Shown here: piece by piece, positions 2,831 through 36,910 of the stretch
How the letters are laid out: each line of letters starts with the position of its first letter
Numbering within the stretch: position 1 is the stretch's first letter
Assembly: GCF_004010195.1 (NCBI RefSeq)
Contig: NC_057759.1
Location: 4,268,301 to 4,311,215 of the forward strand
Origin: Chiloscyllium plagiosum
Lineage: Eukaryota
Direction: 5' to 3'
Length of the DNA stretch: 42,915 bases
The notes under the pieces: generated by a model
What the model was told of the DNA's origin: nothing
Database searches by the model: none
What the model saw: only the letters and a program-made list of their open reading frames with translations
Translations under genes and position numbers: made by a program

Positions 2831-3063
2831 TCCCCAAAGCTGACAGTTCCTGAGTAGATGAGCGCATGCGTGAGGCCCTCCCCCAGCGCTGCCATTGAGG
2901 AGCATTTACTCAGTGAGTGCAAGAGGTTTGTTTGAAACAGACCGCAATGGAGAGATCAGCGCCCAGGGAAGCGAGGGAACAGCAGGCTCCTTTCAGCAGC
3001 ACATCGGGATGGGAGCCTGGGACACAGAGGGGGCTCCGAGACCGGGATTGATTCGGGGTGAGT
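2831..3063 (+). promoter_or_regulatory. Putative promoter/first exon module, copy 1
   Basis: NRF1-type GCGCATGCGT 2862-2871, GC-rich segment, donor GTGAGT 3058-3063. Near-identical to 35761-35991. Confidence 0.55.
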
Positions 3064-3574
3064 TCAGGGAGAACCGGGGGCTGTTTGTAAGAGCAGGAAC
3101 TGGTCCCGGAACTTGGATTGAGCGGGCTGGGGGGAAGAGAGAGGCCTTTCTCGGGCTGTGTGTGGGCCTGCTGAGGGAGGCAGAGCGGGAAGAAGCTGCT
3201 GAGGGACATTCTTGGAGGTTTTAATCATCTCAACCTTGTTGAAATTTCATTCTGCTTCCCATTGTTTGTTGAAAGTGTGCCATCAATAGTGGAACCGCAG
3301 ACCGACTGAAGGAATGGGAAAAGACAAACATATGGTTCTTGGGAAAAAAAAATTAGATATCACGTCGTTTTCCCTCTCTCCAACAGGTAGTATGTTGAGA
3401 GTTGGATATTGAACTGTATTAGCATCCCGGTGGTGAGTAGTCCCATTCATGGAGCTGTGCAGTTGTTGCTCCATTTCTAGGTCTCACTCAATTGGTATCG
3501 AATCATATGAAAAAACAAACACAATCTCCAGACAAGGTGCAGCGCGGCACAATTCCTGTCCTGTTGGAGAGCAC

Positions 3575-3873
3575 AAGGAATCATTGAGTCATAGAGAGGT
3601 ACAGCATGAACACAGACCTTGAGATCCAACTCGTCCACGCTGATCAGGTATCCTAACCAAATCTCGTCCCATTTGCCAACACATGGCCCATGTCCATCTA
3701 AACCGTTCCTATTCATATACATATCCAGATGACTTTTAAATGTTGCAATTGTAACAGTCTCCACCACTTCTCCATGGCCCTTGTGATTTTACGAACCTCT
3801 ATAAAAGGTCCCTCTCCAGGGAAAGCAGATCCAACCTATTCAGCCTCTCCCTATAGCTCAAATCCTCCAACCT
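3575..3873 (-). mobile_element. CR1/HER1 LINE 3' end, internally deleted
   Basis: Minus ORF MVETVTIATFKSHLDMYMNR is the CR1 ORF2 C-terminus, followed by 3' UTR. Confidence 0.8.
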
Positions 3874-3989
3874 GGATGAAACACATTTACATGGAGTTTA
3901 TCTGTGACTGAGGAAGACAGAATTAATCCTTTACTGAATAATTCTCAGACAGAGAGATGACAATTAAATGTGAATTCCAATCAATCTGT

Positions 3990-6465
3990 GCAAAAGTCTG
4001 AGTTTTTCTCACTCCAAAATGACCTCCTCGTGGGAGCTCATGTGCTATTCGACACTTCCCTCTATAACCCACTGGCAATACAACTCGATAAACTTCTGCA
4101 TATTTCTCATCAGCCTGAACATGTGATGGTCTCCATTTCCTCATTAAGACATCATTTTTAAAGATGCAGGGACAGATTCACATTCTTCTGTGTATGCCTT
4201 TTGATACATATTTGCTTAAGATTTAAGCTAAACACGTCTGCTTTATCATCTGTCTCTTCCCGGTTTGTCCCAACCATCTGATCTGATAAGGTCTCTGCTA
4301 ATTTCACTTCAACTTTCTTATCTGTACTCTTTGATCTTTTCTGTTTCAACTGGTGACTGTGACTTTATCACCACACAGTCAGGAATAATCCCAGGATATA
4401 TGTCCAGCAATAATTCAGTTGCCTGAGTTTCCATTGGCTTTTCAACAACAGTAGCCAGCACTCCTACCGGTGATTCAACAATATCAAGGATAAGTTGTGG
4501 TTGACGCTGAGAGTTTGTCCAATGCTCCAACCACAACTTCTCCACTCTTCACTGGACACTCTAATCTCACTTCTCACAATTCAGTGTTTCTTGTCTCAAC
4601 ATGAATTCCTGTTACTAGAACCTTTTTCTGGCAATAGTCCTTCAGAGGTGCATATCTCCTCATCTTTCACTATCACAGATTTAGACGATCTTTAAATCTC
4701 TTATTATTGTAACCACTTTGCCTGCTCTTCCTGGCCTATGTGAGTAAACTTTACCTTCAGAGGTGGATGGTGCAATAGTCCTTCACAGGTGCTAGATTTT
4801 GCTAGATCTTCTTACCCTAAGAAAATCTAGCACCTCCAACCAGCTTGTACATTCTGGTGCAGGTTTTGAACCTCCATTGTACTTTCTGTTATCACTCCAA
4901 CAAAATTCACTGCCTTATCCTGTTTCCTACATTTGGGGGGCTTCCCAGTGTTTTTCCTAACCACCAACACTGACTTATGTAGCCTACTGTCGTGCAGCGA
5001 AAACACCAGAGCTTTTTAACTTTTCTTTCCCCTTCAAGGGTTTCCTTTTTACCCTGTGGTAAGTCATCCTTATGATCTTCACCGAGATCTATTCCTTTCC
5101 ATGTGAGGATTTTTCTTGTCCTCAACTTATATCCCTCATGGATTGAAATTGGTTTTGGAAGCCAAACTTTGACTTATGGACCAACTCATATCCATCAGCC
5201 ATTTCAGCTGCCAATCTTGTCGTTTTTGCTCTCTGCTCTTCCACATGAGTTTTCACTAATTCAGGAAGTGCCAAATTCCAAAGTTCAAACTCCCTCTCTT
5301 TCTTCCTTTCCCTGCTCTCCTTTTCTCTCTCTGTCCTCACGCTGTTTTCTGTATTTAATCATAATTCAAAAGAATTAATTTCTGTCGCCCTTTCCTTGTG
5401 TTCTGCCTCTAACTCAAGTTGCTGAATTTTCCATTGAATGTTAGCCATCTTTGAAGATTCTGATGGTGTTTCCAACAAATTTAAATGCTGAGCTACTGCT
5501 GTAATTATCCCTCCTTTCCTCATGGAAGGACACAGCCTCAATCCCAGCTTGTCTGCTATTTACAGCAGCTCACCCTTAATCACCTTTTGTAAAAGGCCCA
5601 AAATCACTTCTTCCACCCCCACAGAAAACTCTTGTTCACTGAAAGAGTCATTGCCTCCCCAAACACTGTTTAAACCAACTGAATTCAAAGCCCAGAACAA
5701 AAGACACTAACGCCTACCACTCGCTGCCTTAGAGTCCAACGACCCTAATCCCAAGTCTGAACTACAGAACAAATCCTGCAAAGAACCCCCTAACTGGTAA
5801 GGACCATGCCAGATCCCCTAATAACTTTTCAAGTAGCCTGCACCCTAACTTTGCTAGTTGTTTTAAGCAGGTGTAACGCGAATATTCCAGAAGCGATGTT
5901 GCTGGTCAAACCATGTTGTTTTAAACTAAACAGAATTGATTTACAAGATTATCAAATGAAACACAAACAAATGCTCCTATGTCTTATAAGACAATAGAAT
6001 GCTAAATATGTTAACCTATCCAAAAACCCAACAGTTTATACGAACTTAACAATATTGTTCCCAATACTTGCAACAATCCCCACAAACACCCTTTGGCACA
6101 AAAAGGTAAAACCAACACAGGGTCTTACAGGAGAGATGTCAGAGAGAGAGAGGGTACCAGCATGGACCTGCGTCTTTGGGTTCAACAGCTTTTTCAATTA
6201 CCTGACCGCTTTCAGTCAACAGCAAATCAAACCAGAGAAAAGCTGAGCTGGGAAAACTGGGCCACTCCCCTTTCATTTTACAAGTGTTCTTTTTCAAAAT
6301 TTGGAAGCATTTTGCCTGAGGCATTACCTGTTAGCTATAATCAAAATGGTCCTAAAACCATCAAGTCAGACTTTTTGGAGCCTGTGTCTTTTACAAGATT
6401 CTTAAAGGAGCAGAAACATCACAGCAAACTGGTCCAAAAAGTAAAAGGTGTGGGATACGTGGTAA
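3990..6465 (-). mobile_element. Degenerate Gmr1-like Gypsy LTR retrotransposon (5' LTR, gag with SCAN-like and zinc-knuckle remnants, protease region, integrase N-terminus)
   Basis: LTR ~5795-6465; decayed tRNA-Pro-like PBS ~5771-5792. Fragments LPELVKTHVEEQRAKTTRLAAEMADGY, WCFRCTTVGYISQCW, IIPDCVVIKSQ and AHELPRGGHFGVRKT (integrase HH zinc motif). Confidence 0.8.
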
Positions 6466-6819
6466 TGTAGAGAATTGGATGCAAAGTTGGCTTAGTAACA
6501 GGAAACAAATGGTAATCGTTGATGGCTGCTCTTGTTAATGGAACGTTGCTTCAAGTGGTGCTCTGCATGGCTCAGTGTTGGGACCTCTGCTGTTTGTTTT
6601 TTACATTAGTGATTTGGACTTGAATGTGGTGGGGAGATTTGTGAAATTTACAGATGACACCAAAATTGGCCACATCATGGATAATGTAGAGGATAGCTGT
6701 AAGCTCCAAAACTATCATAGATGGTTTGGTGGAGTGGGCAGAAAAGTGGCAGATGGAGTTCAGCTCTGATAAGTGTGAGGGAATGTATTTTGTGAAGTCA
6801 AACAGTAAATGGGAATAGA

Positions 6820-7044
6820 GATGGAAATGTGTTGCTGGAAAAGCGCAGCAGGTCAGGCAGCATCTAGGGAACAGGAGAATCGACGTTTCGGGCATTAGCC
6901 CTTCTTCAGGAATGGTTCCTGAAGAAGGGCTAATGCCCGAAACGTCGATTCTCCTGTTCCCTAGATGCTGCCTGACCTGCTGCGCTTTTCCAGCAACACA
7001 TTTCCATCTCTGATCTCCAGCATCTGCAGACCTCACTTTCTCCT
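6820..7044. mobile_element. Non-autonomous Penelope-like pLTR insertion, head-to-head palindrome, 17-bp TSD
   Basis: TSD CAGTAAATGGGAATAGA at 6803-6819 and 7045-7061. Perfect arms 6817-6912 and 6916-7011. Homologous to the Penelope terminal sequence at 40502-40660. Confidence 0.88.
6919..6946 (+). ncRNA. Minimal hammerhead ribozyme motif (mirror copy on minus strand at 6882-6909)
   Basis: CTGAAGA-A-GGGC(TAAT)GCCC-GAAA-CGTC: catalytic boxes, stem II, palindromic ACGU and a GUC site. Confidence 0.65.
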
Positions 7045-8649: not shown

Positions 8650-8820
8650 AAGGCTTTCTCATTATACCCACCCAGATGCCTTTTAAATGTTGTAATTGTA
8701 CCAGGCTCCACCACTTCTCCATGCGCCTTATGATTTTATAAACTTCTATAAGGTCACTCTCCATGGAATACAGTTCGAGCCTATTCGTCCTTTGCCTATA
8801 GCTCAAATTCTCCAACCGAG
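8650..8820 (-). mobile_element. CR1 3' fragment paralogous to 3700-3873
   Basis: Shares the same internal deletion junction (ccacttctccatg). Confidence 0.72.
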
Positions 8821-8944
8821 ATGTAACATGTAAATACATGGAGTTTATCTGTGACTGAGAAGGACAGGATTCATCTTTTACTGAATAGTTGTCACATACA
8901 GAGATGACAATTAAATAATATGAATTTCAAGCACACAATCTATG

Positions 8945-10275
8945 CAGGTACCTCATGGGCTACTCGCAACACGTCCTTTCTATAACCCACTGGCAATACA
9001 ACTTGATAAACTTCTGCCCATTTCTCATCTGCCTGAATATGTGATGTTCTCCACTTCCTCATTAAGACATCATTTTTAAGATAATAATAATCAGGGATAC
9101 ATTTGGATTCGTTGTGTGTATGCCTTTTGATACAATTGCTTTAAATTTTCATCTTTCTGCTGTAGCTCAGTTAACTTACCTGAGGTAAGGATGTCTGCTT
9201 TGTCGTCTATCTGTTCCTGGTTTGTCTCAACTATCTGATCAAACATGGCCTCTGTTAATTTCCCTTCAACTTTCTTATCTGTACTCTTTGATCTTTCCTG
9301 TTTCAACTGGTGACTTTGTGACCTTGTTACCACACAGTCAGGAAATATTCCAGGATGTGTGTCCTGCAATAGTGCAGATGCTGGAATTTCCATTGACCTT
9401 TCAACCACAGTCGGCATCACTCCTACCGGTGAATTAGCAACATCATTAGCAACGATAAATTGTATTCCTGGAGCTGAAAGTTTGTCCAGTGCTCCCACTA
9501 TGACTTCTCCCCTCTTCACTGGACACCCTAATCTCACTTCTGACAATTGAGCATTTCTTGTCTCAATGTGAATTCCCGTTACTCGTACCTTTTCTGGCAA
9601 TAGTCCTTAGAAGTACATATATCTTTTAGCATCACAGATTGAGTGAATGTGTGTGAATATTGTCACACAGATACAGATATGTGTGAATATTGTCACCTCT
9701 TTATCTGCTGCTCATGACCTACGTGAGTAAACTTTACCTTCACGGTGTATGGTTTAAGAAGATCTGGTACTTCCTCCATAAACAACCTCCAACCAGCTTG
9801 TACTTTCTGGTGCAGCTTTCTAATTTCCACAGTGCTCTCTGTTACCACTCCAACAAAATTCACTGGCTTTTCCTGTTTTCTTACGTCTGACTTCTCAGTG
9901 CTTTCCCTAACCCACCAACACTGATTTCATGTGCCCTACTTTATTGAAAACATCAGAGCTTTTTCACTTCTCTTTCCCCTAGAAGGGCTTCCTTTTTACC
10001 CGATAGTAAATCATCCTTATGATCTTCACACAGATCTACTTTTTATTTTCCATGTGAGAATTTATCTTATCCACAATTATTATCCCTCATGGATTGAAAT
10101 TGATTTTGGCAGGCCAATTTTGATTTATTGCTCAACTCAATCATCAGCCATTTCTGATGCCAGTCTTGCTGTTTTAACTCTCTGCTCTTCCACATGAGTT
10201 CTCATTAATTCAGGAAGCAAATTTTTGAACTCCTGTCAAAGTGTCAATTTCTAAAGTTCAAACTCCCCCTTTCAC
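8945..10275 (-). mobile_element. Second copy of the Gypsy gag-pro-IN remnant
   Basis: ORF 9091-9600 (GIFPDCVVTRSQ...QQKDENLKQLY) is collinear and homologous with 4000-5295. Confidence 0.82.
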
Positions 10276-12767: not shown

Positions 12768-13566
12768 AAGATAAATATGTCCTATTTTCAAAATTAGTTG
12801 CAATTATCTACAAAGTGTTCTGCATTCCTCCTCCCCCTACCGAGGATGTATCCCAAAAAAGCGTGAAATCTGACTGCAATTTTCACAATGCCTCAAAGGA
12901 ATCTAATAACCACCCTTCAAAGCAGTGGAGAAAGGGGGGAAAAAAGCCAAAATTGGCAGGTTTGTAGAACTGCTTATTTCATCTTCAAGCAGAGTTGCAC
13001 AGTGTTGATTATTCCATAAGTTGAATTTGACAGTTTGCATATTCTGCAAGGCATGACAAAAAATAAAAGTCCTTTTCTTTTCCTCCTCCCTACTATAGAG
13101 TAACACAAGAGTACTGCTAATGGTACATCATCACACTACAGAGCCGGGTCTACATCAGAAAATAGAAGTGAATTAGTCAGTTGACTTTTCAGTACAAGGA
13201 ACATCATGGTCAGTCAGCTCCAATGTAGTTGAATGGTTTGTCACTTAGTTGCAAATGGATTCAGTTTACATTGATTGTTAGTTCAGCAGTGTTCAGAAAA
13301 GTACATCACTATGCACTGAAACAAAAACTAATGACATTCTGAAGATAAATATGTCCTATTTTCAAAATTAGTTGCAATTATCTACAAAGTGTTCTGCATT
13401 CCTCCTCCCCCTCCCGAGGATGTATCCCAAAAAAGCGTGAAATCTGACTGCAATTTTCACAATGCCTCAAAGGAATCTAATAACCACCCTTCAAAGCAGT
13501 GGAGAAAGGGGGGAAAAACGCCAAAATTGGCAGGTTTGTAGAACTGCTTATTTCATCTTCAAGCAG
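12768..13566 (+). repeat. 225-bp direct duplication (12768-12992 and 13342-13566)
   Basis: Two mismatches by eye, offset 574 bp. Confidence 0.92.
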
Positions 13567-15459: not shown

Positions 15460-16230
15460 AGATGAGTGATTGGGGGGATGATGCTGTGTGACTTCACAGG
15501 GGGATTGACAAGTTGGCCAAATGGACAGAAACCTGGCAGATTAATTCCAATGCAGAGAAATGGGAGGTAATGCATTTTCCTAACAGAAACACAGAGCAAC
15601 AATGCAATGTCAATGGTACATCTTTGAGGGAAGCACTGGAGCAGAGGGACCTTGGGGTTCAAGTGTATCATTCGCTGAAGTTGGCTAGGCAAGCTGAAAC
15701 CTTTGTGAAGAAGGCTAATAGGATTCTTGCCGTTATAAATAGAGGCATTGAGTACAAAACTAAGGAAGTGATGCTACACGTCCACAAATCATTGGTCAGA
15801 CCACATTTGTGTTCAGTTCTGGACACTTTATTTAAGGAAGGAACTTCACGCTCTGGAGAGTGTTCATTAAAGATTTATGAGAATGAAGGATTTTACAAAA
15901 AGGAAGGATTAGTGACACCAGGCTCCTCCTCCTCAGAGCAGAGAAGATTAAGAGAGGAGCATTATGGAGGTGTTCCAAATTATAAAGAATTTTGTCAGAG
16001 GAAAGAAGAATATTTTGTTACCATTAGTTGGTATGTGAGTAACTAGGCATCACAATTTCAAGATTGTAAGCAAGAGAGCGAGGAGTGAGATGAGGAGAAA
16101 TGTCTTTACTCAGAGTTGTTAGGATTTTGGATTGTGCAGCCTGGGATCGTGGTGGAGGTAGATTCCATATGAGGTATGAAAAGAGATTTGGGTGTGTATT
16201 AACAGTGATGAAGTTAGAGGACAACGAAGA
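15460..16230 (+). mobile_element. CR1 LINE ORF2 3' portion
   Basis: WTETWQINSNAEKWEVMHF...RDLGVQV...KSLVRPHL. Confidence 0.85.
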
Positions 16231-16592
16231 TAGGGCTGGAAAACAAGTTATTTCTACCACAATTTCAACAAAAGGTGGAGAATACATTCAATTCATTGGC
16301 TCGTCTGCCTGGATCCACTTGCCAGGAAATCAAATGGATGCTAAAGTTAAGAATGAACAGCATAAAACTTCAAATCTCTGCCATCAATACGTAGATTGTG
16401 CTACAATGAGATAAATTGACACATTGAGGGTTGGGAGAGACACAATTATTCAGATGGTTTCTCAAGACAAGTCCATCTTTGGAACTAACATCTTGCTGAG
16501 TGAATTGAGACAAAGCCTATCCTAGTCTCAGAAACGTGTCATTTCTATGCCTTCTCTTCTTTGTCCTCTTTATTTGCTGGAAGGTAGGATTG

Positions 16593-16766
16593 TTATGTTC
16601 GATTTTGAAGCTTCACAGGCTTTCTTCTGTGCTGTCTCAATGTCCGTGGAAGGCTGGTATAAGCATTTCCCTCTTCCTCTTAACCTGATCCCTCATCCCC
16701 TCCTGTATCTATGTGTCTCAGGGCTGCATATGTGGTGCAGGATGGTTGCTGCTCCACTTGGTCAAC
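16593..16766 (-). pseudogene. Terminal cytoplasmic exon with tyrosine motifs (ITIM/ITSM-like)
   Basis: Acceptor ttttttgtcAG. VDQVEQQPSC-TTYAAL-RHIDTGGDEGSG*EEEG-NAYTSL-PRTLRQHRRKPVKLQNRT*. Minus-strand AATAAA at 16569-16574. Same strand as, and downstream of, the two Ig exons. Confidence 0.62.
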
Positions 16767-16809
16767 CTGACAAAAAATGCCAACATAGAAATTTAGTAGA
16801 TAGGAGCAG

Positions 16810-17692
16810 GATCAAAATTGGTGGCATTGTGGACACAGAAGGTTATCTAAGAGTAAAATGGAAATTTGATCAACTGGGCCACTGGGTCAAGGAATGGCAG
16901 AAGAAGTTTAATTTAGATAAATATGATGTGTTGCATTTTAGTAAGGCAAACCAGGGCACGAGTTATACTGTTAATAGTACAAGTCTGGGCAGTGTTTCCG
17001 AACAAAAAGACCTCAGGGTGCAGGTGGATAGTTCCTTGAATGTGCATTGCAGCTCGATACTGTGGTGAAGGCGGCTTTTGGCATGCTTGCTTTCCCTGGT
17101 CAGAGCACTGACGACAGGAGTTGGGGCATCATGTTTCAATTGTACAGGATTTAGTGAGGCCACTTTTAGAATGCTGGGCACAGTTCTGGTCAACTTGCTG
17201 TGGAAAGGATGTTCTTAAGCTAGAATGGTACAGAAAAGATTTACAAAGATGTGGCTACATTACAGGGTTTGAGTTTTAAGAAAAAGCTGCATAAGCTGGG
17301 AGCTCTTCTCCCCTGGAACGTCAGAGGCTTAGGGCTGACCTTATAGAGGCTATAAAATCACGAGGGGCAGGGAAAAGGTAAATAGGTATGGTCTTTTCCC
17401 CAAGGTAGGTGTGTTCAAAACTAGTCGGCATAGGTTTAAGGTGAGAAGTGAAAGTTTCAAAAGGGATCTGAGAGGCAAACGTATCACACAGAGGGCAGTG
17501 CGTACATGGAATGAGCTGCCAGAAGAAGTGGTAGAGGCAGGTACAGTTACAACACTTGAAAGACATTTGGAAAGAAACCTTCAGAGAGATATGCGCCAAA
17601 TGCAGATAAACGGCACTAGTTGTATTTGGGAAAACTGGTCGCCATGGGTGGGTTGGGCTGAAGGTCCTGTTTCTGTGCCGTATGATTCTATG
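16810..17692 (+). mobile_element. HER1/CR1 LINE 3' end with UTR
   Basis: KIGGIVD...WQKKFNLDK...KDLRVQV; QRAVRTWNELPEEVVEA; 3' UTR. Confidence 0.9.
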
Positions 17693-17904
17693 AAAATGGA
17701 TGAGAATAACAAAGTTTGCCTGAAAGACAATCGGAGTGCACAGGAGGAGCTATGAATATCTGGGGTCATTATACAGACCAATTTCTCTTGGCAAATCACA
17801 TGATTTGAACAAGCAAAAACCTGACCCTGATATTGGTTATTTCTCTGTATTCTGAACAGGATGTGGCCATTTCTGCCAAGGTGGAAAGTGAATGCTATAC
17901 CAAA

Positions 17905-18165
17905 ATGGCTGGTTAGCAAAGTTAGATCTCACGGAATACAGGGAGAGGGCATAGGTTTAGTGTGAGAGGGAAAAGATATAAAAGAGACCTGACGGGCAAC
18001 TTTTACACAGAGGGTGGTACGTGTATGGAATGAGCTGCCAGAGGAAGTGGAGGCTGGTACAATAGCAACATTTAAAAGGCATCTGGCAGTAGTTTGGATT
18101 GGGATATCTGGTCGGCATGGGTGGGTTGGACTGAAGGGTCTGTTTCCATGTGTACATCTCTATGA
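17905..18165 (+). mobile_element. CR1 fragment with large internal deletion
   Basis: RT-core sequence (ggttagcaaagttagatctcacggaatacagggagag) joined directly to the C-terminal gggcataggttt...tggaatgagctgcc. Confidence 0.8.
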
Positions 18166-18269
18166 ATAAATAGACTTACTCAGCTAGAAGGCAGTGAAGA
18201 GTTTGCACAGGAATCAAGTGCAGAGCAGACTAAGAAGGGCAGATTTCATTCCCTGAAGAACCAACACAG

Positions 18270-18500
18270 ACAGGAACACGAGAAGGCCATTTGGCCCCTC
18301 GAGCCTGCTCAGCCATTCAATAGCATCATGGCTGATGCACCATTCCTCACGGTCACCTTCCTGCACTTAACATGTCATCCTCAATTCCCAAACTGATCAA
18401 GAATCAAACCTGCTCCCTGTCCCCACACACAGCTCTCTGTGGCAAGGAGTTCCAAAGACTCTCAACAGTCCGAGAAGAAATCCTCCTCACCTCAGTTTTC
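18270..18500 (-). mobile_element. CR1 3' end of another subfamily
   Basis: ggccatttggcccctcgagcctgctcagccattcaata and ggagttccaaagactc. Confidence 0.7.
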
Positions 18501-18744
18501 AATTTTGAACCGATTAAAACTTAACTGCCCTCTTTTTCACTCCAAAATAACTTATGTGTTTCCTTCCTGATGTATGATTTGAGTAAGCAGTAAATAAAAG
18601 AAAAGACATTTTCCCAATGGTGCACATCGAACTGAACTGGGAGAGGATGCACAGGGAGACGTATTACATATAGCCTCGGGCGATGGAGAGTTTCAGTGAT
18701 CGAGAGAGATTGGACAGACCGGGGTTGTTGTCCTTACAGCAAAG

Positions 18745-19061
18745 TAGATTAGATTAGATTTCCTACAGTGTGGAAATAGGCCCTTCGGCCCAACAAGTCT
18801 ACACCCACCCTCCGAAGAGTAACCCACCCAAACCCATTTCCCTCTGACTAATTCACCTAACACTATGGGCAATTTAGCATGGCCAATTCACCTGACCTGC
18901 ACATCTTTGGAATGTGGGAGGGAACCGGAGCACCCGGAGGAAACCCACGCAGACACTGGGAGCATGTGCAAACTCCACTCTGACAGTCGCCCAAGGCTTG
19001 AATCAAATCTGGGACCTGGTGCTGTGAGGCAGCAGTGCTAACCACTGAGCCACCATGCCAC
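18745..19061 (-). mobile_element. HE1 V-SINE
   Basis: Near full length with (TTAGA)n tail. Confidence 0.92.
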
Positions 19062-19168
19062 TTATTGTTTTTTGATTATAGATGACTCCGAAACAGATAG
19101 CAGGTTAGTGTACTTAGTTTTCACCATCTCAAAGCCAAGAAACGCTGGTACAGGATACTATATATATA

Positions 19169-19481
19169 TTAGATTACTTACAGTGTGGAAACAGGCCCTT
19201 CGGCCCAACAAGTCCACACCGCCCCGCCGAAGCGCAACCCACCCATACCCCTACCCCTACATTTACCCCTTACCTAACACTACGGGTAATTTAGCATGCC
19301 CAGTTCACCTGACCTGCACATCTTTGGACTGTGGGAGGAAACCGAAGCACCCGGAGGAAACCCACGCAGACACGGGAAGAACGTGCAAACTCCACACAGT
19401 CAGTCACCTGAGGCGGGAATTGAACCCGGGGCTCTGCCGCTGTGAGGCAGCAGTGCTAACCACTGTACCACCGTGGCGCCC
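19169..19481 (-). mobile_element. HE1 V-SINE (young subfamily)
   Basis: Near full length with CpGs retained. Confidence 0.93.
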
Positions 19482-19899
19482 ACAAACTTCTATATATACT
19501 TCTATAACATTTCTGGTTCAGTGAAAGTGGAGATTTTCTCAAATTCATATCAACCTTCAAAACTCCCGCCACTTTTGAACAGCACATCAAGTGAAGGTCT
19601 GTTTCCTGTACCCTGTTGCCCTGACTCCCTGCCAATACCCGTCCAATTGGAGGGAAACCCTTGCGTCTGCGAAATTCGCTCCAAACTCTCACCATCGCAG
19701 TCACATCACTGTTTCTGTGCAGCTTCTCATTAACAACATCCTACCAATCCTACCTAGACTATTTGATGCCGAAGTCAAAAGTGCATCCACATTCTAAATT
19801 ATTGACTGGAAATTATTGCCCCTCATTTTCCCTGCCTACATATATCGAGGCAAAACTTCCTTGTGTCATCCACCCGTCAGCAGCAACTGGGCCATTCAC

Positions 19900-20430
19900 A
19901 GAGAAACATCGAAAATATCATCATGAGGAGGCCAGTCGGCCCTTCCAGCCTGCTCCATCCATTCAATGGGATCGTGGCTGATCACCTAACTTCGTCCTGT
20001 GCCTCCCCGCACTCTCCTTTAGTCCCTGAGAACTCAATCCTGAACAGAGAATTCCACAGGCTCCCCACTCTCTGGGTAAAGACATTTCTCCCCATTTTAG
20101 TCTTGTTGCGTCTCCTTCAGACAGTGACCCCCTGGTTCTTGATTCTCCGTTTGGTCACTGGGTACACTTGGTCTTTGTGTTTACTCTGTCTCGTCCTTGT
20201 TCAGATTTCTATGAGACTTCACCTTAATTCCTCTCAACTCCAGTGACTATCATCCTGACTGATCGCATCTGTCTCCAGTCTTGCTATCCCAGGAATCCTT
20301 TGCAGCACTGCCTCCACAGGCACAATGTCCTTCCTCAGATAAGGAGACCCCAAACTGCACACCTTGGTCTCACCCTGTCCAATTGTAGCAAGCCATCCCT
20401 GCTCCTGGACTTGAATCGTCTCACTGTGAA
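19900..20430 (-). mobile_element. CR1 3' portion, old
   Basis: agaattccacagg...ctctctggg and gacccaaactgcacac motifs. Confidence 0.7.
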
Positions 20431-20654
20431 GGTCTCCCTTATTGGAGCAAGGATGTTACACTCTCTCTCTGCTACCAGACCTGCTGAGTTTTTCCAGCGC
20501 TTTGTGTTTATAACCTGCAACATTAATTCTGTCTCTCTCTCTCTCTCTCTCCACGGATGCTGCCAGACCTGTTGAGTGTCTGAGGCAATTTTTTTAGAGT
20601 ATTCATATCAAGTCTTCGGCTGCACCCCAGTGAAGAATAAGCATGGATCATTAC

Positions 20655-20957
20655 CTGGCACTGTGAGGTCGATGGAATTACTGGTCACGTTAAATATCAT
20701 TCCAATGGGACCCTTGTTGATCACGACACACTGTTATTGGTGTTGGTGCTGGGACTGGAAGGATTCAATGACCACCTCTGTCCTGTCTGAGCTAGAGTTG
20801 TAATTCCTGCTGGCATTGTTTAAGGCTTTCTGTTGAAAGTACCATTGTAAGTAGTGTCTAGTACCTCGGCTCAGTGCACACTCTGGAACAAGACAACGCC
20901 CAATCAGAATCTTCATTTTATTGGCTCTGGGGGTGAGGAAAACCCCAGCAACAGGAA
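20655..20957 (-). pseudogene. Second Ig exon of the same receptor, 303 nt, one in-frame stop
   Basis: Acceptor tcttgttttcttccAG and donor GTAATG, phase 1/1. PVAGVFLTPRANKMKILIGRCLVPECALSRGTRHYLQWYFQQKALNNASRNYNSSSDRTEVVIESFQSQHQHQ*QCVVINKGPIGMIFNVTSNSIDLTVP retains B-strand C, C-strand W and F-strand C. Confidence 0.8.
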
Positions 20958-21188
20958 CTGGAAGAAAACAAGACAAAGAGGAAATAAAAGATTGGACGCT
21001 GAAATTGTCTCCTTTTTCACAGATGTTATCTTCGATGACAAGATAATAACAGATGGAAAGTAATAAAACAAGCAAGATTTCTCATAATTGCAAAGTCTCC
21101 CTATGTTGTAAAATCTACATTTCAAAAGATTTGTATTAACAATGGATGGCCAAATCATTCAACCATTGCCTCTCAATGTTCAATGGTA

Positions 21189-21513
21189 TTACCATCACTG
21201 TCCCCACCCCACTGCACTATCAACATCCTGGGGGTTACCGTCACTGTCCCCACACTCTTCCCACTATCAACATCCTGGGCGTGACCATCACTGTCCCCAT
21301 CCCCACTATCAACATCCTAGGGGTTACCGTCACTGTCCCCACCCCTCTATCAACATCGTGAGGGTTGCAGTCACTGTCCCCATCCCCACTATCAACATCC
21401 TGAAGGTTAACGTTACTGCCTCCACACTCTTCCCACTATCAACATCCTGAGGGTTACCATCACTGCCCCCATCCCCATTGTCAACATCATGGGGGTTACC
21501 GTCACTGTGCCCA
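21189..21513. repeat. Minisatellite, ~8 units of ~39-45 bp
   Basis: Unit ccactatcaacatcctgggggttaccgtcactgtccccac. Confidence 0.92.
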
Positions 21514-21729
21514 CATAAACACCCTACCCCACATAAACATCTTTGGTGTTACCATCAGCCTCCATCAGTTCATATTGTCTAACCTTCTACCTTTCTCTGA
21601 TGGATTGCTTAACAAGGAATTGTAGAGTCAGAGGTCTACAGCACAGGAACAGGATCTTTGGCCGACTGAATCCAGTCAAAAATGCCAGTCAAAAGCAACC
21701 AACTCTATTCTCTGATAACATTTTCCCAG

Positions 21730-22480
21730 TCATAGGGTCATACAGCATGCAAATAGACCCGTCGGCCCAACACATCCATGCTGACCAGGCCACACTCACA
21801 AAACTAGTCCCATTTGTTTGCATTTGGCCTATATCCACCTAAACCTCTCCTAACCATGTATCTTTCCAAATCTATTTTAGGTGTTGTTATTGTACGCACT
21901 CCCACCACTTCCTCTGGCAGCTCATTCCAAATATGCACCACCATCCGTGTGAAGAAGTTACCCCTCTGGTCGCTTTTAAATCTTTCCCCTCTCACCTTAG
22001 TCTTGGACTGCCCTGCCCTGCAGAAAAGAACTTGGCTATTCATCTTACCCAAGCTCGTATTTCTGCAGGAAAATACGAGTGAAACGTCAAGGACCACTTA
22101 ATATGACTCTAGCCTGACATCGCAAGTGCACATATAAATTCTTCTTCAATGTGATGAGGATTTCTGCCTCTCTCACTCGTACAGGGTGAAAATGTTTTCC
22201 CTCACATCCCCCTGGAAACCTCCTGGCCCTTACCTTCAATCTATGCCCCTCCCCCAGTCATTGGTCGCTCCATCAAGGGGGATTTCTTCCTGTCTACCCT
22301 ATCTACACCCATTATTTTATACATTTCAATCATGTCACGACACTCAATCTCCTCTGCTCTCAGGAAAACAACCACAGTCTATCCAATCTCTCTCTATCAC
22401 TGAAACTCTCCAGCATGCAAAGTAACATCCCTCTGCACGCTGCCCCAATGCTGTTACATTGCTCCGATAATTTGGATTTG
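21730..22480 (-). mobile_element. CR1 3' fragments (two adjacent pieces)
   Basis: FFTRMVVHIWNELPEEVV ORF plus UTR; second piece ~22100-22480. Confidence 0.8.
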
Positions 22481-22503
22481 TACAGAGTTGCTTACAAACT
22501 TAC

Positions 22504-22777
22504 TGATCACTGAAACGGCGAGGAATTTGCTGTTCAGGAGAGATTCTTCCTCCTGGTTAGAAACAGCACAGTGCTAATTGCCCTCTTGACTTTTGCTGAT
22601 GTTGATGATTCTGTGTACGGTTCTGCTGTGGTTGGAGTATTCCCAGTAAATCTCCTCATCGTCTTTCTGGAAAATATACTGAATTGAGGTTGAACTAAGC
22701 GGTTTAAAGGGGTGCTGTCTCCCTCCACTACCTCATTTCCACGTGAGCATTCAGCTCTAGGACTGACACAGGGATGT
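22504..22777 (-). pseudogene. Disabled Ig C2-type exon of an FCRL/PECAM-like receptor
   Basis: Acceptor ttaatcacAG and donor GTAAGT, phase 1/1. Conceptual translation across two frameshifts: IPVSVLELNA / RGNEVVEGDSTPLN(R for C)LVQ / SIQYIFQKDDEEIYWEYSNHSRTVHRIINISKSQEGN*HCAVSNQEEESLLNSKFLAVSVI. Confidence 0.78.
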
Positions 22778-23103
22778 CTGTGATTAAACCAAACTGTTAG
22801 ACACTTTTCTAAGGCAGGATTTGTGCTCAGCAATGAACAGTGCTCCCACACTACAGTCAGAGAGAGTTACAGGGTCACTGAGAGAGTCAGAGAGAGACAG
22901 AGGGTCTCAGAAAGGCAGGAAGAAACATAGAACATAGAACACTGCACAGCTGCAACATGACTTCCAAACACCTATACTCAATGCTCTGACCAATAAATCA
23001 AAGCATACCAAACACTTTCGTTATCCTATCTACCAGCTTCTGCACTTGCAAGAAACTATAAACCTGCACTCCAAGGTCTCTTTGCAACAGCTCGCATTAA
23101 ATT

Positions 23104-23170
23104 ATCCATCTGCCAAGCCTCAAACCATCAGTACATCCATCTGCCAAGCCTCAAACCATCAGTACATCCA
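23104..23170. repeat. 31-bp tandem duplication
   Basis: atccatctgccaagcctcaaaccatcagtac x2. Confidence 0.9.
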
Positions 23171-23224
23171 ACCAATTCTAATTTATATCAAAGTTTCTTT
23201 CCTCTCTCATTTGAATACATACAT

Positions 23225-23625
23225 CTAGGCGGATAGGCTGGGAAATGTTTCACTGGAGCATAGGAGGTTGAGAGGTGACCTTGTAGAGGACTATAAAATC
23301 ATGAGAGGTATAGATGGGGTAAACAGCAAGTGTCTTTTCCCTAGGGCGGGGGTTTCACGATTAGGGAGCAAATGTTGAAGGTGAGAGAAGAAAGATTTTT
23401 TCAAAAGAACGAGGATCACTTTTTTTTAAGAAAGCAGTTTCTATGTGGAATGAATATCCAGAGGAAGTGGTGGATTCAGGTACTGTGACAACGTTTAAAA
23501 GACATTTGCATAAATTCATAAATCAGAAAGGTTCACAGGGATATGGGCCAAATACTAGCAAGTGGGACTAGATTAATTTGAGAACATAGTCAGCATGGAC
23601 GAGATGGACTGCATTTGCCATGTGT
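23225..23625 (+). mobile_element. HER1/CR1 3' end
   Basis: gaggtgaccttgtagagg...tggaatgaatatccagaggaagtggtgg and UTR. Confidence 0.85.
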
Positions 23626-24129
23626 TTGCCAATTGAGACCCAGACCTTTCCAGAGTCTGTCCCCTCCCTAGATTCACTCCCTTTCCTTTCAGTTCCTGCA
23701 AGTCAACAATTGAATCCCAGAATGAAACAAAGAAATGGAAAACGCGGTAAGAAAAGAGTGCTGTACGAACAGATGTTGAACAGAGGAAAGAAGTTGCAGT
23801 TTGGGGTGAAACCCAATCTTCATTCAGAGAGAGGAGCAGCAACTTCCGAAGCTCATGGTCCAATGTCTGCATTCAGACAAAAGGAGGGTTGTGACTGGCA
23901 GGAGGACCACACTCCTTCCAATTGTCCAGGGCTCCTCATTGGTCCATTAAAAAATGTTGCAGGCCGTTTCCGCGGTGAGCGAGGAGCATGCGCATTATTT
24001 TGCTGACACCGATGAACATTCACAGAGCTTGCAGACACCGAGGAGCATGTGCAGTATGCAGTGCGAAGATGCTGGTGCTACTGACAAATTTAAAGTGCCT
24101 AAATGCCAATCGTTTAAAAAAAGGCTGCA

Positions 24130-24629
24130 NNNNNNNNNNNNNNNNNNNNNNNNNNNNNNNNNNNNNNNNNNNNNNNNNNNNNNNNNNNNNNNNNNNNNNN
24201 NNNNNNNNNNNNNNNNNNNNNNNNNNNNNNNNNNNNNNNNNNNNNNNNNNNNNNNNNNNNNNNNNNNNNNNNNNNNNNNNNNNNNNNNNNNNNNNNNNNN
24301 NNNNNNNNNNNNNNNNNNNNNNNNNNNNNNNNNNNNNNNNNNNNNNNNNNNNNNNNNNNNNNNNNNNNNNNNNNNNNNNNNNNNNNNNNNNNNNNNNNNN
24401 NNNNNNNNNNNNNNNNNNNNNNNNNNNNNNNNNNNNNNNNNNNNNNNNNNNNNNNNNNNNNNNNNNNNNNNNNNNNNNNNNNNNNNNNNNNNNNNNNNNN
24501 NNNNNNNNNNNNNNNNNNNNNNNNNNNNNNNNNNNNNNNNNNNNNNNNNNNNNNNNNNNNNNNNNNNNNNNNNNNNNNNNNNNNNNNNNNNNNNNNNNNN
24601 NNNNNNNNNNNNNNNNNNNNNNNNNNNNN
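24130..24629. other. Assembly gap (500 N)
   Basis: N run. Confidence 1.
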
Positions 24630-25570
24630 CTCTGGTTGAGATCATTTTAAGAGGGTCGGTGTGGACTTGCAGGGCTAAAGGTCCTGTTCCAAAACTGTAT
24701 GCATTCTAATTCTAACTAAAAGACTAACCCTGAAAGTTTCTGCTAGATGAGTTATTAATGACTAATAAATTTATATTTAATCTCTCCCAATCAGTTTCTG
24801 ATTTGATAATGCATGAATGCATTTATCAATCTGAATCTGTCATTCTTTGTAATATGAATATGTGAGTAGAGTTACTATTCTATGCCTGGAGACATAGGAG
24901 TGGAGGCTAGGAAACTTGGGGAATTAAATATTGACATCATGAAAACAGTTCACATGCCAAAAGAAGAGGTGTTTTTTAGATTAGATTAGATTACATTACA
25001 GTGTTGAAACAGGCCTTCGGCCCAACAAGTCCACACCGAGCCGCCGAAGGGCAACCCACCCATACCCCTACATTTACCCCTTACCTAACACTATGGGCAA
25101 TTTAGCATGGCCTGACCTGCACATCTTTGGACTGTGGGAGGAAACCGGAGCACCCAGAGGAAACCCACGCGGGCACGGGGAGAACGTGCAAACTCCACAC
25201 AGTCAGTCGCCTGAGGCGGGAATTGAACCCAGGTCTCTGGCGCTGTGAGGCAGCAGTGCTAACCACTGTGCCACCGTGCCACCCGTGTTAGAGACGTTAA
25301 AAAAAAATAAAGGTGTCTCAAACTCTTGGACCTGATCAAGTATATCTCATGATGTTGTAGGAAGCTGTATTAATAATTTGAATTAATGATATTATTTTTT
25401 CATATTGATATTGTGTGCTCAGTAATGATTCCCTACTTGTCACATATGGCTGCTGAAATTATGTAAAAGCACGATGTCATTGTTTATCCGGTTTGTAACA
25501 TTTAAAATGTAAATTGGATTTAGTACACCAATTGCCTACTTTAGACAACCAGTCAACTTCAAAAATGCTG
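24630..25570 (+). repeat. Left arm of ~0.9 kb inverted duplication
   Basis: Reverse complement of 36911-37816. Confidence 0.95.
24976..25284 (-). mobile_element. HE1 V-SINE within the left arm
   Basis: Full head, core and tail. Confidence 0.93.
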
Positions 25571-30806: not shown

Positions 30807-31487
30807 ATGAGCGACAGTGCAGCCGCCGAAACGGCTCCTCCAGCATCCGCTCCCACCAAAGCCAAGGCTCCCAAGAAGAAGGCGGCGGCTCCCAGGAAGA
30901 AAACACCCGGTCCCGGGTTGGGAGAGCTGATTCTGAAGGTTGTCGGGGATATCAAGGATCGCAAAGGGGCGTCTCTGTCCGCTGTAAAGAAGGGGCTGGA
31001 GAGAAGAGGGATCGATGTGGGAAAGCGAAACCCACAAATCAAGATGAGTATCAGGAGGTGCCTGGCGAACGGCTCCCTTGTTCTGGTCAAGGGCCATGGC
31101 GTCTCCGGCTCCTTCAAACTCCCAAAGAATCCAGTCAAGGCAAAAGCGGGAAAGAAGGCGGGAACATTAGCGGCCGCCAAGAAACCGGCCGTGAAGAAAT
31201 CACCGGCCAAGAAGGTGACAGCCAAGAAATCTCAGGCCAAGAAGGCGACAGTCAAGAAATCCCTGGTCAAGAAAGCGACAGTCAAGAAATCCCCAGCCAA
31301 GAAAGCGAGCGGCAAGAAGGCGGCACCGCCAAAGAAAGCGGTGAGCAAAGCAGCGCCAAAGAAACGGACTCCCGTGAAGAAGGTGAAAAAGACCAAGGGC
31401 CCTAAAGCCCCCAAACCCCTCAGCAAACCGGCTAAAAGCAAGGCCAAGCCCAAAGCGAAAGTGACCAAGACAGCAGCAAAGAAATGA
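30807..31487 (+). CDS. H1: Replication-dependent linker histone H1, 226 aa, intronless
   Basis: ATG at 30807 (ctcaacATGa). MSDSAAAETAPPAS N-tail, winged-helix globular domain (GPGLGELILK...SLSAVKK...GSLVLVKGHGVSGSFKL), K/A/P-rich tail with SPAK/TPVK motifs. Downstream histone stem-loop. Confidence 0.96.
   Translation: MSDSAAAETAPPASAPTKAKAPKKKAAAPRKKTPGPGLGELILKVVGDIKDRKGASLSAVKKGLERRGIDVGKRNPQIKMSIRRCLANGSLVLVKGHGVSGSFKLPKNPVKAKAGKKAGTLAAAKKPAVKKSPAKKVTAKKSQAKKATVKKSLVKKATVKKSPAKKASGKKAAPPKKAVSKAAPKKRTPVKKVKKTKGPKAPKPLSKPAKSKAKPKAKVTKTAAKK
31194..31313 (+). repeat. 4 x 30-bp coding tandem repeat in the H1 C-terminal tail
   Basis: Units encode KKSPAKKVTA / KKSQAKKATV / KKSLVKKATV / KKSPAKKASG. 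Confidence 0.85.
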
Positions 31488-31523: not shown

Positions 31524-31564
31524 GGCTCTTATCAGAGCCACCCACATCTCTCAGGAAAGAGCTG
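31524..31564 (+). terminator. Histone 3' stem-loop and histone downstream element of H1
   Basis: GGCTCT-TATC-AGAGCC at 31524-31539 flanked by CCAAA and ACCCA. AAAGAGCTG HDE at 31556-31564. Confidence 0.93.
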
Positions 31565-32059: not shown

Positions 32060-32661
<602 letters not shown>

Positions 32662-32713
32662 ACGGGGCCTGGCCGGCCCTGCACATTCACCCAGAGAGAG
32701 AGAGAAACACAAC

Positions 32714-32750
32714 GGCTCTTTTCAGAGCCACTAAACTATCCAGAGAGAGC
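32714..32750 (+). terminator. H3 stem-loop and HDE, proximal copy
   Basis: GGCTCTTTTCAGAGCC 32714-32729 followed by purine-rich CAGAGAGAGC 32741-32750. Confidence 0.93.
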
Positions 32751-32855
32751 GGGAAGCGATAGGGGACCTGAGAGCATAACAGTAATTTGCTCTTGCCGCA
32801 CTAAGTCAAATCTGTTGTTCGTAAATATACTTTGAATCTAACAGAAAAACACAAC

Positions 32856-32892
32856 GGCTCTTTTCAGAGCCACTAAACCATCCAGAGAGAGC
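32856..32892 (+). terminator. Second, distal histone stem-loop and HDE
   Basis: GGCTCTTTTCAGAGCC 32856-32871 and CAGAGAGAGC 32883-32892, 142 bp downstream of the first copy. Confidence 0.88.
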
Positions 32893-33544
32893 AGGAAACG
32901 ATGTATTAGTATTGTTATTATGAAAGGAACAAGTAAATGGAGATTGAGTGAAATATTGATTTGGAGTCAGTCAGCGACAATGAAAATACACCGACCGAGG
33001 TCTTCGGTGATCGCAGAATTTATTATAATACAATATTAGAGATTTGTAATTTTACTACACAATTAGGAATTCCCCCAACAATAGCCCTCGCTCCTCACTG
33101 TTTATCGTGGTGGTAAACATGGCTTGTGCTTGTGGAGAACATTTGGCGCCAAGAGACCAGCCGCTTTTATTTTGAATTGAAATGCCCGCCAACATGCCAG
33201 AGGAGAATACGTGAATTCGTATTCGGTGATTTGTTTTTCCCATTACAAAAACAATTCTTCATTACTCCCTTTCCTAACTTACATCTGCAAAAAAAAAATT
33301 GACTCGCCAGTGAGTCAATTTTTCGAGACAGAGTCTTTTTATTCCGAGAGAGATAGCGAGCATATTAAACACCAGTGAGTAATGCATTGCCGGGGAGTTA
33401 TTCCCATTGAGCGGCAGTGAAAAAAACATACTGAAATGTAATTTGTACATCATATATGAAGGTAGTGGAGTATTCCGGATTAAAGACCCTCTCTCCTAAT
33501 TGTCTCCCTTGGCATTCCCACCAGCTGTAACTGTATGATCATTG

Positions 33545-33716: not shown

Positions 33717-34538
33717 TACTATCTGATCATTGCTGAGAAGGCAGGCGGGAAATCATCAACCGTCTTCCTTCAGATTTGGACATCCCGCCGAGACGTAGGA
33801 GTTTAATAGAAAAAATGCTTTCGTACTTCATCGTTAATTTGCTTTTAGATTACTAAAGTACAGTTCACACAGTCTCTCTTTAGGAGGAGTGAACACATGA
33901 GCTGTTTGAAGGATCCGAGATGCTCTTTGGAGGGGAGGTTCAGACTCGATGGGCCGAATGCCCTCATTAAGCCCTGTCAGGATTTCATGAACGTTCTTCG
34001 CCGTGAGCGCATTGATAACGAACACCGCCTGAGGTATTATTTTAATATCGTACTCCCTTGTTGCAAAAGCTCCACATTAACAATTCCAGTCAGGCAACTG
34101 TTCTGGTTGGATCTCGGTTCATTTTGAACTGTATCTACCCGTGGGTCTGTAAGAAAAAGGGAACTTATTTTGTTTCCCAATGATGAAACTCAGGGCTTAC
34201 GCCCCAACCGGGGCTTGTGGCTTCCGGAATAATCAAATAGAGAGTAACTTGAGCAAATAGCAGAAAAAAGATTAATATGTTCCCAAGAGGCAGAGAAGAG
34301 AGGGCACGTTCTCTTCTCTCGAAGCCAGCGCCAAATCATAATCAGCTTTCTTTCCAATTTGAAAAGCCCGCCGATTCACAAGTAACGGAGTATGTTTTCC
34401 ATAAAAGAATCCTGTATAAGAAGGAGGACGTTGTTCAGAGGAGAATCCACCAATACCTGTTAATTAGGTTACAAATGTATACTTCAGACAATCTCTCTCG
34501 CTCATTCATTTGCCGAACCGCATCTGTTTCTTTCTACC

Positions 34539-34974
34539 NNNNNNNNNNNNNNNNNNNNNNNNNNNNNNNNNNNNNNNNNNNNNNNNNNNNNNNNNNNNNN
34601 NNNNNNNNNNNNNNNNNNNNNNNNNNNNNNNNNNNNNNNNNNNNNNNNNNNNNNNNNNNNNNNNNNNNNNNNNNNNNNNNNNNNNNNNNNNNNNNNNNNN
34701 NNNNNNNNNNNNNNNNNNNNNNNNNNNNNNNNNNNNNNNNNNNNNNNNNNNNNNNNNNNNNNNNNNNNNNNNNNNNNNNNNNNNNNNNNNNNNNNNNNNN
34801 NNNNNNNNNNNNNNNNNNNNNNNNNNNNNNNNNNNNNNNNNNNNNNNNNNNNNNNNNNNNNNNNNNNNNNNNNNNNNNNNNNNNNNNNNNNNNNNNNNNN
34901 NNNNNNNNNNNNNNNNNNNNNNNNNNNNNNNNNNNNNNNNNNNNNNNNNNNNNNNNNNNNNNNNNNNNNNNNNN
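34539..34974. other. Assembly gap (436 N)
   Basis: N run. Confidence 1.
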
Positions 34975-35738: not shown

Positions 35739-35991
35739 GCGCATGCGCGATGCAGCTCCTTCCCCAAAATTGAACGTTTGTGACGAGTAGAGGAGCGCAT
35801 GCGTGAGGCCCTCCCCTAGCGCTGCCCCGGCATTTACTCAGTGAGTGCAAGAGGTTTGTTTTAAACAGACCGCAATGGAGAGATCAGCGCCCAGGGAAGC
35901 GAGGGAACAGCAGGCTCCTTCCAGCAGCACATCGGGATGGGAGCCTGGGACACAGAGGGGGCTCCGAGACCGGGATTGATTCGGGGTGAGT
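35739..35991 (+). promoter_or_regulatory. Putative promoter/first exon module, copy 2
   Basis: GCGCATGCGC 35739-35748 and GCGCATGCGT 35795-35804; donor GTGAGT 35986-35991. Confidence 0.58.
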
Positions 35992-36910
35992 TCAGGGAGA
36001 ACCGGGGGCTGTTTGTAAGAGGCCGAGCGGAGCAGGAACTGGTCCCGGATCTTGGAGTGAGCGGGCTGGGGGGAAGAGAGAGGCCTTTCTCGGGCTGTGT
36101 GTGGGCCTGCTGAGGGAGGCAGAGCGGGAAGAAGCTGGTTCTTGGGGTTTTTAATCCCCTACACACTGATGGGAATTCATTGTTTGACTTCTGTTTCATA
36201 CTGTTTGTTGATACTGGGCAGTGAAGAATGGAAGTACAGACCATAATTTTGCGACAATCTTATAAAGGATACTTATTAGAGTGAACAGACTTGAAGTTTC
36301 GAGTAAAACATTAGACATAGCGTCCCTTGTTCTTTCCTTCAACATTTAGTGTATTGGCAGCTTGCTATTGGTGTATGTCAGCGTTGCAGCTGCTTCAGGA
36401 ATTCCCATTCATGGAGGTGAACAGATAATATTTCTGGATCTCACCCAATTGTCACAAAGTTGCAAATAAAAGAAAAGGAGAAAGAGTGGAATTGAAACCT
36501 GGTTCTGTTTGAATTGCTAGGTTTAAAAATACCCAAATGATTATTAACTGACTGCCACACTGATCAGTTAAATCTTGCCTAACGTTGCTTATATTGATTT
36601 ACAGCTGAAAAATCTTCTGTGTTCCTCCAAGGAAATATTTGAATGTCATATTTCCTCGGTACAAAGCCAATTGTGACCAGCTGCTTCTAACAAACAGAAG
36701 GTATGTTACCACTGTCAAAACAGAGAACATCCTTTCCACAGGCACAGAGCAGATTGAATGAGACTTAGTTTGAGCTCAATTTCCAGAGATATATCCAAAG
36801 AAATGGACAGTTAGACACAACTGCAGAAAGACAAATTTCTTTTTTCTCTGCATTCTCCATAGACATCTTCCCAGTTTCAGTTAATATGATTCATAGGCCA
36901 CTACCATTCA

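Follow-up and report, generated by a model that had tools for sequence, protein, structure and literature searches.

The stretch of the Chiloscyllium plagiosum genome analyzed here (NC_057759.1, positions 4,268,301 to 4,311,215 of the forward strand; 42,915 nucleotides [nt], referred to as the window) contains a pseudogene of a shark immunoglobulin (Ig) receptor bearing immunoreceptor tyrosine-based inhibitory motifs (ITIMs), and this gene is dead as assembled. With a probability of about 0.8, what remains at the locus is the 3′ half of a gene for a shark Ig receptor, which likely stems, as a third and now dead copy, from a duplication in the lineage of bamboo and epaulette sharks and whose family is likely that of the Fc-receptor-like (FCRL) proteins.

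A pseudogene of an ITIM-bearing Ig receptor

Single intact shark proteins matched the window by tblastn at 22505-22779 (domain 4, D4), 20650-20958 (domain 5, D5) and 16638-16769 (C terminus), in this order, and the three minus-strand exons (Table 1) thus belong to one gene. All three have AG acceptors, and both Ig exons have GT donors and phase 1/1, as proposed in an earlier, sequence-only reading, which had described the locus as a relic of a cartilaginous-fish inhibitory receptor of the FCRL/PECAM group; the collinear homology to intact shark proteins bears this description out. Local alignment scores were 233-271 for D4, 344-361 for D5 and 128-149 for the last exon, with shuffled maxima of at most 64. 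Read through its stop codon (X), the D5 piece retrieved six intact or partial shark proteins from Hemiscyllium, Chiloscyllium and Stegostoma in a phmmer search (69-72% identity; E values of 3e-37 to 3e-34), while 65 to 70 of the 89 aligned residues of the D4 piece are identical to three intact paralogues. The Ig domains were less visible to Pfam hidden Markov models: D5 matched Ig_3 weakly, at E = 0.013 and thus under the Pfam cut-off, and the D4 and last-exon pieces had no Pfam match.

In total, the assembled locus carries two frameshifts and three premature stops. The D4 exon, 274 nt long instead of the expected 285, has lost 1 nt near 22742-22745 and 10 nt, including the first cysteine codon, near 22699-22701, and it carries a TAG stop at 22576. 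The D5 exon is a single frame broken by TAA at 20736, the site of the Tyr that precedes the second cysteine, and of the 23 positions that at least 90% of 17 intact proteins share, 6 are altered in this copy. The last exon begins at 16766, as first read, and has a premature TAA at 16682; its proposed end at 16593 is a read-through stop, and intact relatives terminate where the window has AGA (16635-16637). The TTYAAL and NAYTSL motifs are present as decayed versions of ITYATL and NVYANL, a Y-x-F in place of W was found in D4 while D5 has W, and the AATAAA signal downstream of the last exon is weak evidence, since the minus strand of the window holds 27 such hexamers. Disabling lesions in coding exons and the retention of introns characterize the locus as an unprocessed pseudogene.

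Table 1. Receptor exons, neighboring genes and assembly gap in the window
Feature	Position	Strand	Evidence and remarks
Ig exon, D4 of a five-domain receptor	22504-22777	-	AG/GT, phase 1/1; protein alignment
Ig exon, membrane-proximal D5	20655-20957	-	AG/GT, phase 1/1; phmmer, tblastn
66-nt tail exon, first ITIM in intact paralogues	19082-19147	+ (inverted relative to the rest of the gene)	AG/GT intact; tblastn, DNA profile
Intron after the ITIM exon	19148-19524	+ (inverted)	Split by a short interspersed element (SINE) at ~19165-19481
Tentative 32-nt tail exon	18556-18587	- (the gene's own orientation)	Sole profile match in 16767-20654; length and phase right
Last exon, decayed second ITIM and terminal tyrosine motif	16569-16766	-	AG acceptor; TAA at 16682; AATAAA at 16569-16574
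Assembly gap	24130-24629		500 N; 1.35 kb upstream of the D4 exon
Histone H1 gene, neighbor past the gap	30807-31487	+	Pfam PF00538, E 4e-15; stem-loop at 31524
Histone H3 gene, neighbor past the gap	32251-32661	+	Pfam PF00125, E 2e-45; stem-loops at 32714 and 32856

A further exon of the gene lies on the opposite strand. The ITIM-bearing tail exon had an alignment score of 65-84 (shuffled maxima of 36-39) and a DNA profile score of 48.3, with a runner-up of 6.5, and the LVYSVI motif of intact paralogues reads LVYLVF in this copy. When the SINE is skipped, the frame of the intron that follows matches an intron read-through that ends the gene model P0005. Both the inverted exon and the missing transmembrane (TM) exon had escaped the sequence-only reading. 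The minus-strand match at 18556-18587 has TG and AT in place of the AG acceptor and GT donor and is probably a tail exon in which both splice sites have mutated; a bare profile match occurred in 64 of 300 shuffles, and none of the 300 gave a match that also had the donor-like and pyrimidine context, by criteria chosen post hoc. From the strand of the inverted exon and its intron relative to that of this tentative exon, the left end of the inversion would lie within 18588-19062 and the right end within 19525-20654.

In protein alignment and DNA profiles, the TM exon, the next two tail exons (C1 and C2) and the signal-peptide and D1-D3 exons gave no match in the window that stood clearly out from the shuffled background. 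A TM-like match at 16071-16136 was dismissed as chance (score of 43-50 against shuffled maxima of 41-49), as it contains stops and lies beyond the last exon; a nine-codon match at 13140-13166 (+), also attributed to chance, has no supporting context. The missing 5′ exons may lie inside or past the assembly gap. Two points tell against the assignment of the locus: the 5′ half of the gene is unseen, and the inversion and stops are read from the assembly and may include assembly errors.

The second point would fit a local misassembly among repeats, the true allele being collinear and either carrying stops or even intact. Two SINE copies flank the inverted exon, the interval is rich in fragments of long interspersed elements (LINEs), and the gap and a 942-bp inverted duplicate are close by. 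The sequence from 16400 to 24129 is nevertheless free of gaps, and stops, frameshifts and lost motifs are spread over all five exons of a copy with a long end branch (see below), so that misassembly alone could not yield an intact gene; we regard this explanation as improbable. A sequencing-run search listed 24 rows, of which 20 contain part of the stretch and none half of its words, with no RNA data set among those listed; it carries no weight in this assessment. Even less probable is a copy that still acts, either as a secreted decoy, with the signal peptide and D1-D3 in the gap and truncation in D4, or as a transcript with a regulatory role. The D4, D5, inverted and last exons do keep splice sites, and an isoform devoid of the TM exon has been modeled for an intact paralogue (P0038), but 5′ exons are unseen in the window and the first frameshift, after ~11 codons of D4, comes long before the later exon junctions, a position that would normally trigger nonsense-mediated decay. 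The dead copy would make no receptor; a spliced D4-D5 transcript would run into a frameshift and a stop inside the D4 exon.

The origin of the dead copy was examined in a tree of 11 rows built from read-through pieces. The window copy falls inside the carpet-shark group (support of 100/100) and, together with bamboo and epaulette shark genes, is separated from the zebra shark (86/92), while standing outside both paralogue A (100/99) and paralogue B (99/98). Measured from the same node, its end branch is 0.21 long and those of A and B about 0.12-0.15. Nesting within the shark five-Ig ITIM receptor family received 100/99 in a 34-row domain tree and 100/100 in the 11-row tree. A third copy would thus have arisen at about the same time as the surviving paralogues A and B and then lost its function, decaying by point mutation, internal inversion and deletion of the TM exon and two tail exons.

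The intact shark family, FCRL and PECAM1

The intact paralogues anticipated by the sequence-only reading exist, and RefSeq already lists them with automatically assigned names ("Fc receptor-like protein 1-6", "PECAM-like"). Named relatives occur in 10 shark species: Hemiscyllium ocellatum, C. plagiosum, Chiloscyllium punctatum, Stegostoma tigrinum, Mustelus asterias, Scyliorhinus canicula, Heterodontus francisci, Heptranchias perlo, Cetorhinus maximus and Carcharodon carcharias. No ray or chimaera proteins were among the named matches, in searches not designed to exclude them. Three Heterodontus proteins are encoded on contigs of equal length, as are three C. plagiosum proteins, which suggests gene clusters. 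XP_059498323 (S. tigrinum), XP_060712749 (H. ocellatum) and XP_043539740 (C. plagiosum) have the same exons and motifs as the window copy and are 70-82% identical to it over D4 and D5, whereas the window copy is broken, partly inverted, devoid of the TM exon and a member of neither paralogue A nor B. The Hemiscyllium gene model P0009 comprises the membrane-proximal domain, TM segment and tail only, with an N terminus that resembles a window repeat, and may be another truncated family copy. The family is annotated in RefSeq and apparently unstudied: no study of it was found in the open-access literature searched.

By the usual ITIM definition, at least two ITIM-like hexamers are present in 12 of the 14 intact shark proteins examined, and a terminal YxN motif and an uncharged TM core were each found in 13 of the 14. 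For P0006, AlphaFold predicts five beta domains with confidence, followed by a TM helix at 487-513 and a tail without structure. The living paralogues are likely inhibitory leukocyte receptors. As type I proteins, they would have their two ITIMs phosphorylated and recruit SH2-domain phosphatases, which would damp activating signals; ITIM phosphorylation followed by phosphatase recruitment is an established inhibitory mechanism.

The membership of this family in the FCRL/PECAM group holds and can be refined: domain classes and domain order lean toward FCRL over PECAM1, and sequence comparison makes orthology to FCRL fairly probable. Amphibian FCRL-like proteins were the best BLAST group for all 16 intact shark proteins, and five of the six shark domain-class profiles scored best on amphibian FCRL-like domains in a comparison with 109 reference domains, 60 of them from PECAM1. 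The membrane-proximal class reached 77.5 bits on amphibian FCRL-like domains versus 43.1 on PECAM1, and the domain order of shark P0020 parallels that of frog P0200, while teleost PECAM1 lacks three of the shark domain classes. In a tree of 34 rows picked from 87 domains, shark and amphibian membrane-proximal domains grouped together (87/82; 94/83 with coelacanth). The domains of a three-domain coelacanth "FCRL5" (P0033, Latimeria XP_005989140) group with the shark/frog membrane-proximal class, which suggests that this domain type predates amphibians.

Comparison with the amphibian proteins (here from Ascaphus, Bufo, Rhinoderma, Pelobates and Leptobrachium) extends this resemblance. At least 75 Xenopus XFL genes have been reported, with five shared domain subtypes and one Xenopus-specific subtype (PMC2413239). 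Phase-1 Ig exons, shuffled subtypes and birth-and-death expansion are common to the XFLs and the shark genes, as are the membrane-proximal domain class and the domain order, and we infer that the shark membrane-proximal class is the "Xenopus-specific D6" of that paper. XFLs are described there as paired, with activating members that have a special TM module; a member with a charged TM segment was not found among the 14 shark proteins. The phase-1 rule, applied to XFLs in the same paper, holds for the single-exon Ig domains of the window and is weak evidence for FCRL, since such exons are common to many Ig genes. The intact paralogues also carry FcR-type Ig subtypes in an FcR-like order, and of the cytoplasmic motifs expected of the FCRL/FcR group (ITIMs or motifs of the immunoreceptor tyrosine-based switch or activation type), ITIM-like hexamers are present in the intact proteins, at the frequency given above, and have decayed in the dead copy.

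Human FCRL5, FCRL4 and Fc-gamma-RI were the top sequence matches of the shark receptor in the PDB (4e-51, 2e-17 and 1e-16). Like the shark proteins, they combine tandem C2-type Ig domains with tyrosine motifs; identity between Fc-gamma-RI and the shark model is low (24-26% in structural alignments), and the closest shark paralogues differ in having no D2-type domain. No PECAM-1 chain was among the 60 best PDB matches of P0006, which include Fc-gamma-RI at 1e-16, and none matched P0013 at E ≤ 1e-7, whereas a teleost PECAM1 control (P0041) matched PECAM-1 D1-D2 at 2e-14 and Fc-gamma-RI at 2e-7. FCRL5 as best PDB hit was dropped as an argument, as the control also matches FCRL5 best (E 2e-56).

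PECAM1 shares ancestry with FCRL5 and has related Ig domains (the D4 class) and an ITIM tail. The alternative is that the same pseudogene belongs to a shark-specific expansion of the PECAM1/allergin type or to an independent branch of the FCRL/PECAM1 superfamily rather than to an orthologue of tetrapod FCRL. Several RefSeq members are named "PECAM-like", and a number of observations weigh against FCRL orthology. The D4 class scored 60.0 on PECAM1 domain 6 versus 51.5 on mammalian FCRL, and the window D4 piece itself matches PECAM1 best; the match of teleost PECAM1 to FCRL5 belongs here as well. The approximately unbiased test permits a grouping of the shark membrane-proximal domain with PECAM1 domain 6 (p = 0.223), and a full 87-domain tree, calculated in quick mode, left 43 of 84 inner branches unresolved. 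The two tryptophan motifs of tetrapod D2-type domains are present in 0 of 17 shark proteins and in 3 of 8 reference proteins. The reference set holds one mammalian FCRL and lacks shark PECAM1, allergin-1 and C17orf99, and its amphibian names are automatic. P0013 has a weak Pfam match to Ig_C17orf99. The 120 matches listed, of 190 in a PECAM1 search, were all teleost, with no shark PECAM1 among them. A Foldseek search with the P0006 model returned PirB, contactin and titin first and Fc-gamma-RI at rank 17, a generic tandem-Ig result without discrimination.

What sets the shark family apart from PECAM1 is the ectodomain. The shark proteins have no similarity to PECAM-1 D1-D2, which the teleost control matches, and they possess a membrane-proximal class that PECAM1 lacks. 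In place of the fixed six-domain ectodomain of PECAM1 (six domains in 4 of 4 teleost proteins), the 17 shark proteins display nine architectures of 3-9 domains drawn from six domain classes, resembling the XFLs (PMC2413239). With five of six domain classes and the domain order also pointing to amphibian FCRL-like proteins, we consider a PECAM1-type or independent origin rather unlikely and favor orthology to FCRL.

The D1-D2 pair with conserved tryptophan motifs that defines classical Fc receptors is found in none of the 17 shark proteins, and the family does not qualify as classical Fc receptors; in the latter, the D2 tryptophan motifs serve Fc binding. Ig binding by the shark proteins is still possible, since FCRL5 binds IgG through D1-D3 and without the Fc-gamma-R residues (PMC13524021).

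Histone genes and other features of the window

The H1 and H3 genes are real, while their distance of ~8 kb from the receptor, as given in the sequence-only reading, spans the 500-N gap. A round gap of this size is usually a scaffolding join, its length unknown. Human FCGR1A adjoins the HIST2 cluster, and the receptor-histone linkage counts as a lead rather than as evidence. In the literature searched, Fcgr1 and Hist2h2be appeared together in a single quantitative trait locus table for mouse chromosome 3, and nothing further on such a linkage was found. The H3 open reading frame is uninterrupted and reads ELTWLG at 32536-32560 (+), which we take to replace a different stretch normally conserved in H3; this resembles a compensated -1/+1 frameshift of about four codons, to be explained by an error in sequencing or by damage to the gene copy. 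A 60-bp duplicate (32701-32760 and 32843-32902) provides the H3 gene with its two histone stem-loops.

The window is shark-like DNA in which SINE and LINE fragments occur, and it has two N gaps, the second at 34539-34974. The 942-bp inverted duplicate (24630-25570 and 36911-37816; 95% identical) begins exactly at the edge of the first gap and brackets the H1/H3 pair, and is either a segmental duplication or assembly trouble. Other repeats include a near-perfect palindrome of 195 bp made of two repeat copies (6817-7011; 98%), a direct duplicate of 225 bp (12768-12992 and 13342-13566; 99% identical), and two pairs of related repeats, one 84% identical (2831-3303 and 35761-36242) and one 75% identical (3716-5277 and 8663-10223), the translation of the latter resembling remains of a long terminal repeat retrotransposon. 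The D4-D5 intron contains a minisatellite (21189-21515; period of 42, 7.4 copies). Adjoining the second gap, 33790-34538 (-) is non-repetitive and coding-like, with an 80-codon open stretch at 33837-34076; its read-throughs had no match in Pfam, and it is possibly a decayed gene or mobile element.

Possible meaning for Fc receptor-like proteins in sharks

Shark genomes have been reported to be devoid of FcRL, whose origin was put in bony fish (PMC4016189, 2014), and a 2026 review likewise states that cartilaginous fish lack FCRL and asks how sharks manage antibody-dependent phagocytosis (PMC13337447). A single-cell paper reports fcrl3 and fcrl5 in shark B cells (PMC11372145); no shark FCRL gene ids were seen in the available part of its supplement file 3, and these two genes may be members of the present family. 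A 1988 paper entitled "Fc receptor for shark IgM" is cited in PMC6795676, and passages of PMC5278576 mention Fc receptor signaling as gene ontology terms only.

It is about an even question whether sharks possess a genuine FCRL family, expanded and with shuffled domains, that is orthologous to amphibian XFLs and mammalian FCRLs. If they do, the lineage of FcR genes, together with the membrane-proximal domain type regarded as specific to Xenopus, would come from the jawed-vertebrate ancestor rather than from bony fish, the shark proteins would be candidates for the receptor for shark IgM Fc, as yet unidentified at the molecular level, and the histone adjacency may preserve the FCGR1A-HIST2 linkage.

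The dead copy itself is ordinary birth-and-death debris and of little weight; it does lead to a family of ITIM receptors that are intact in 10 or more species of shark. The surprise is limited, since the genes are already labeled in RefSeq and fcrl names appear in the single-cell paper. If the family is FCRL, the statement that cartilaginous fish lack FCRL would fall, the origin of FCRL would move to the jawed-vertebrate ancestor, and named genes would become candidates for binding of IgM, IgW and IgNAR. The family would gain weight from a demonstration of FCRL orthology and, even more, of Ig binding.

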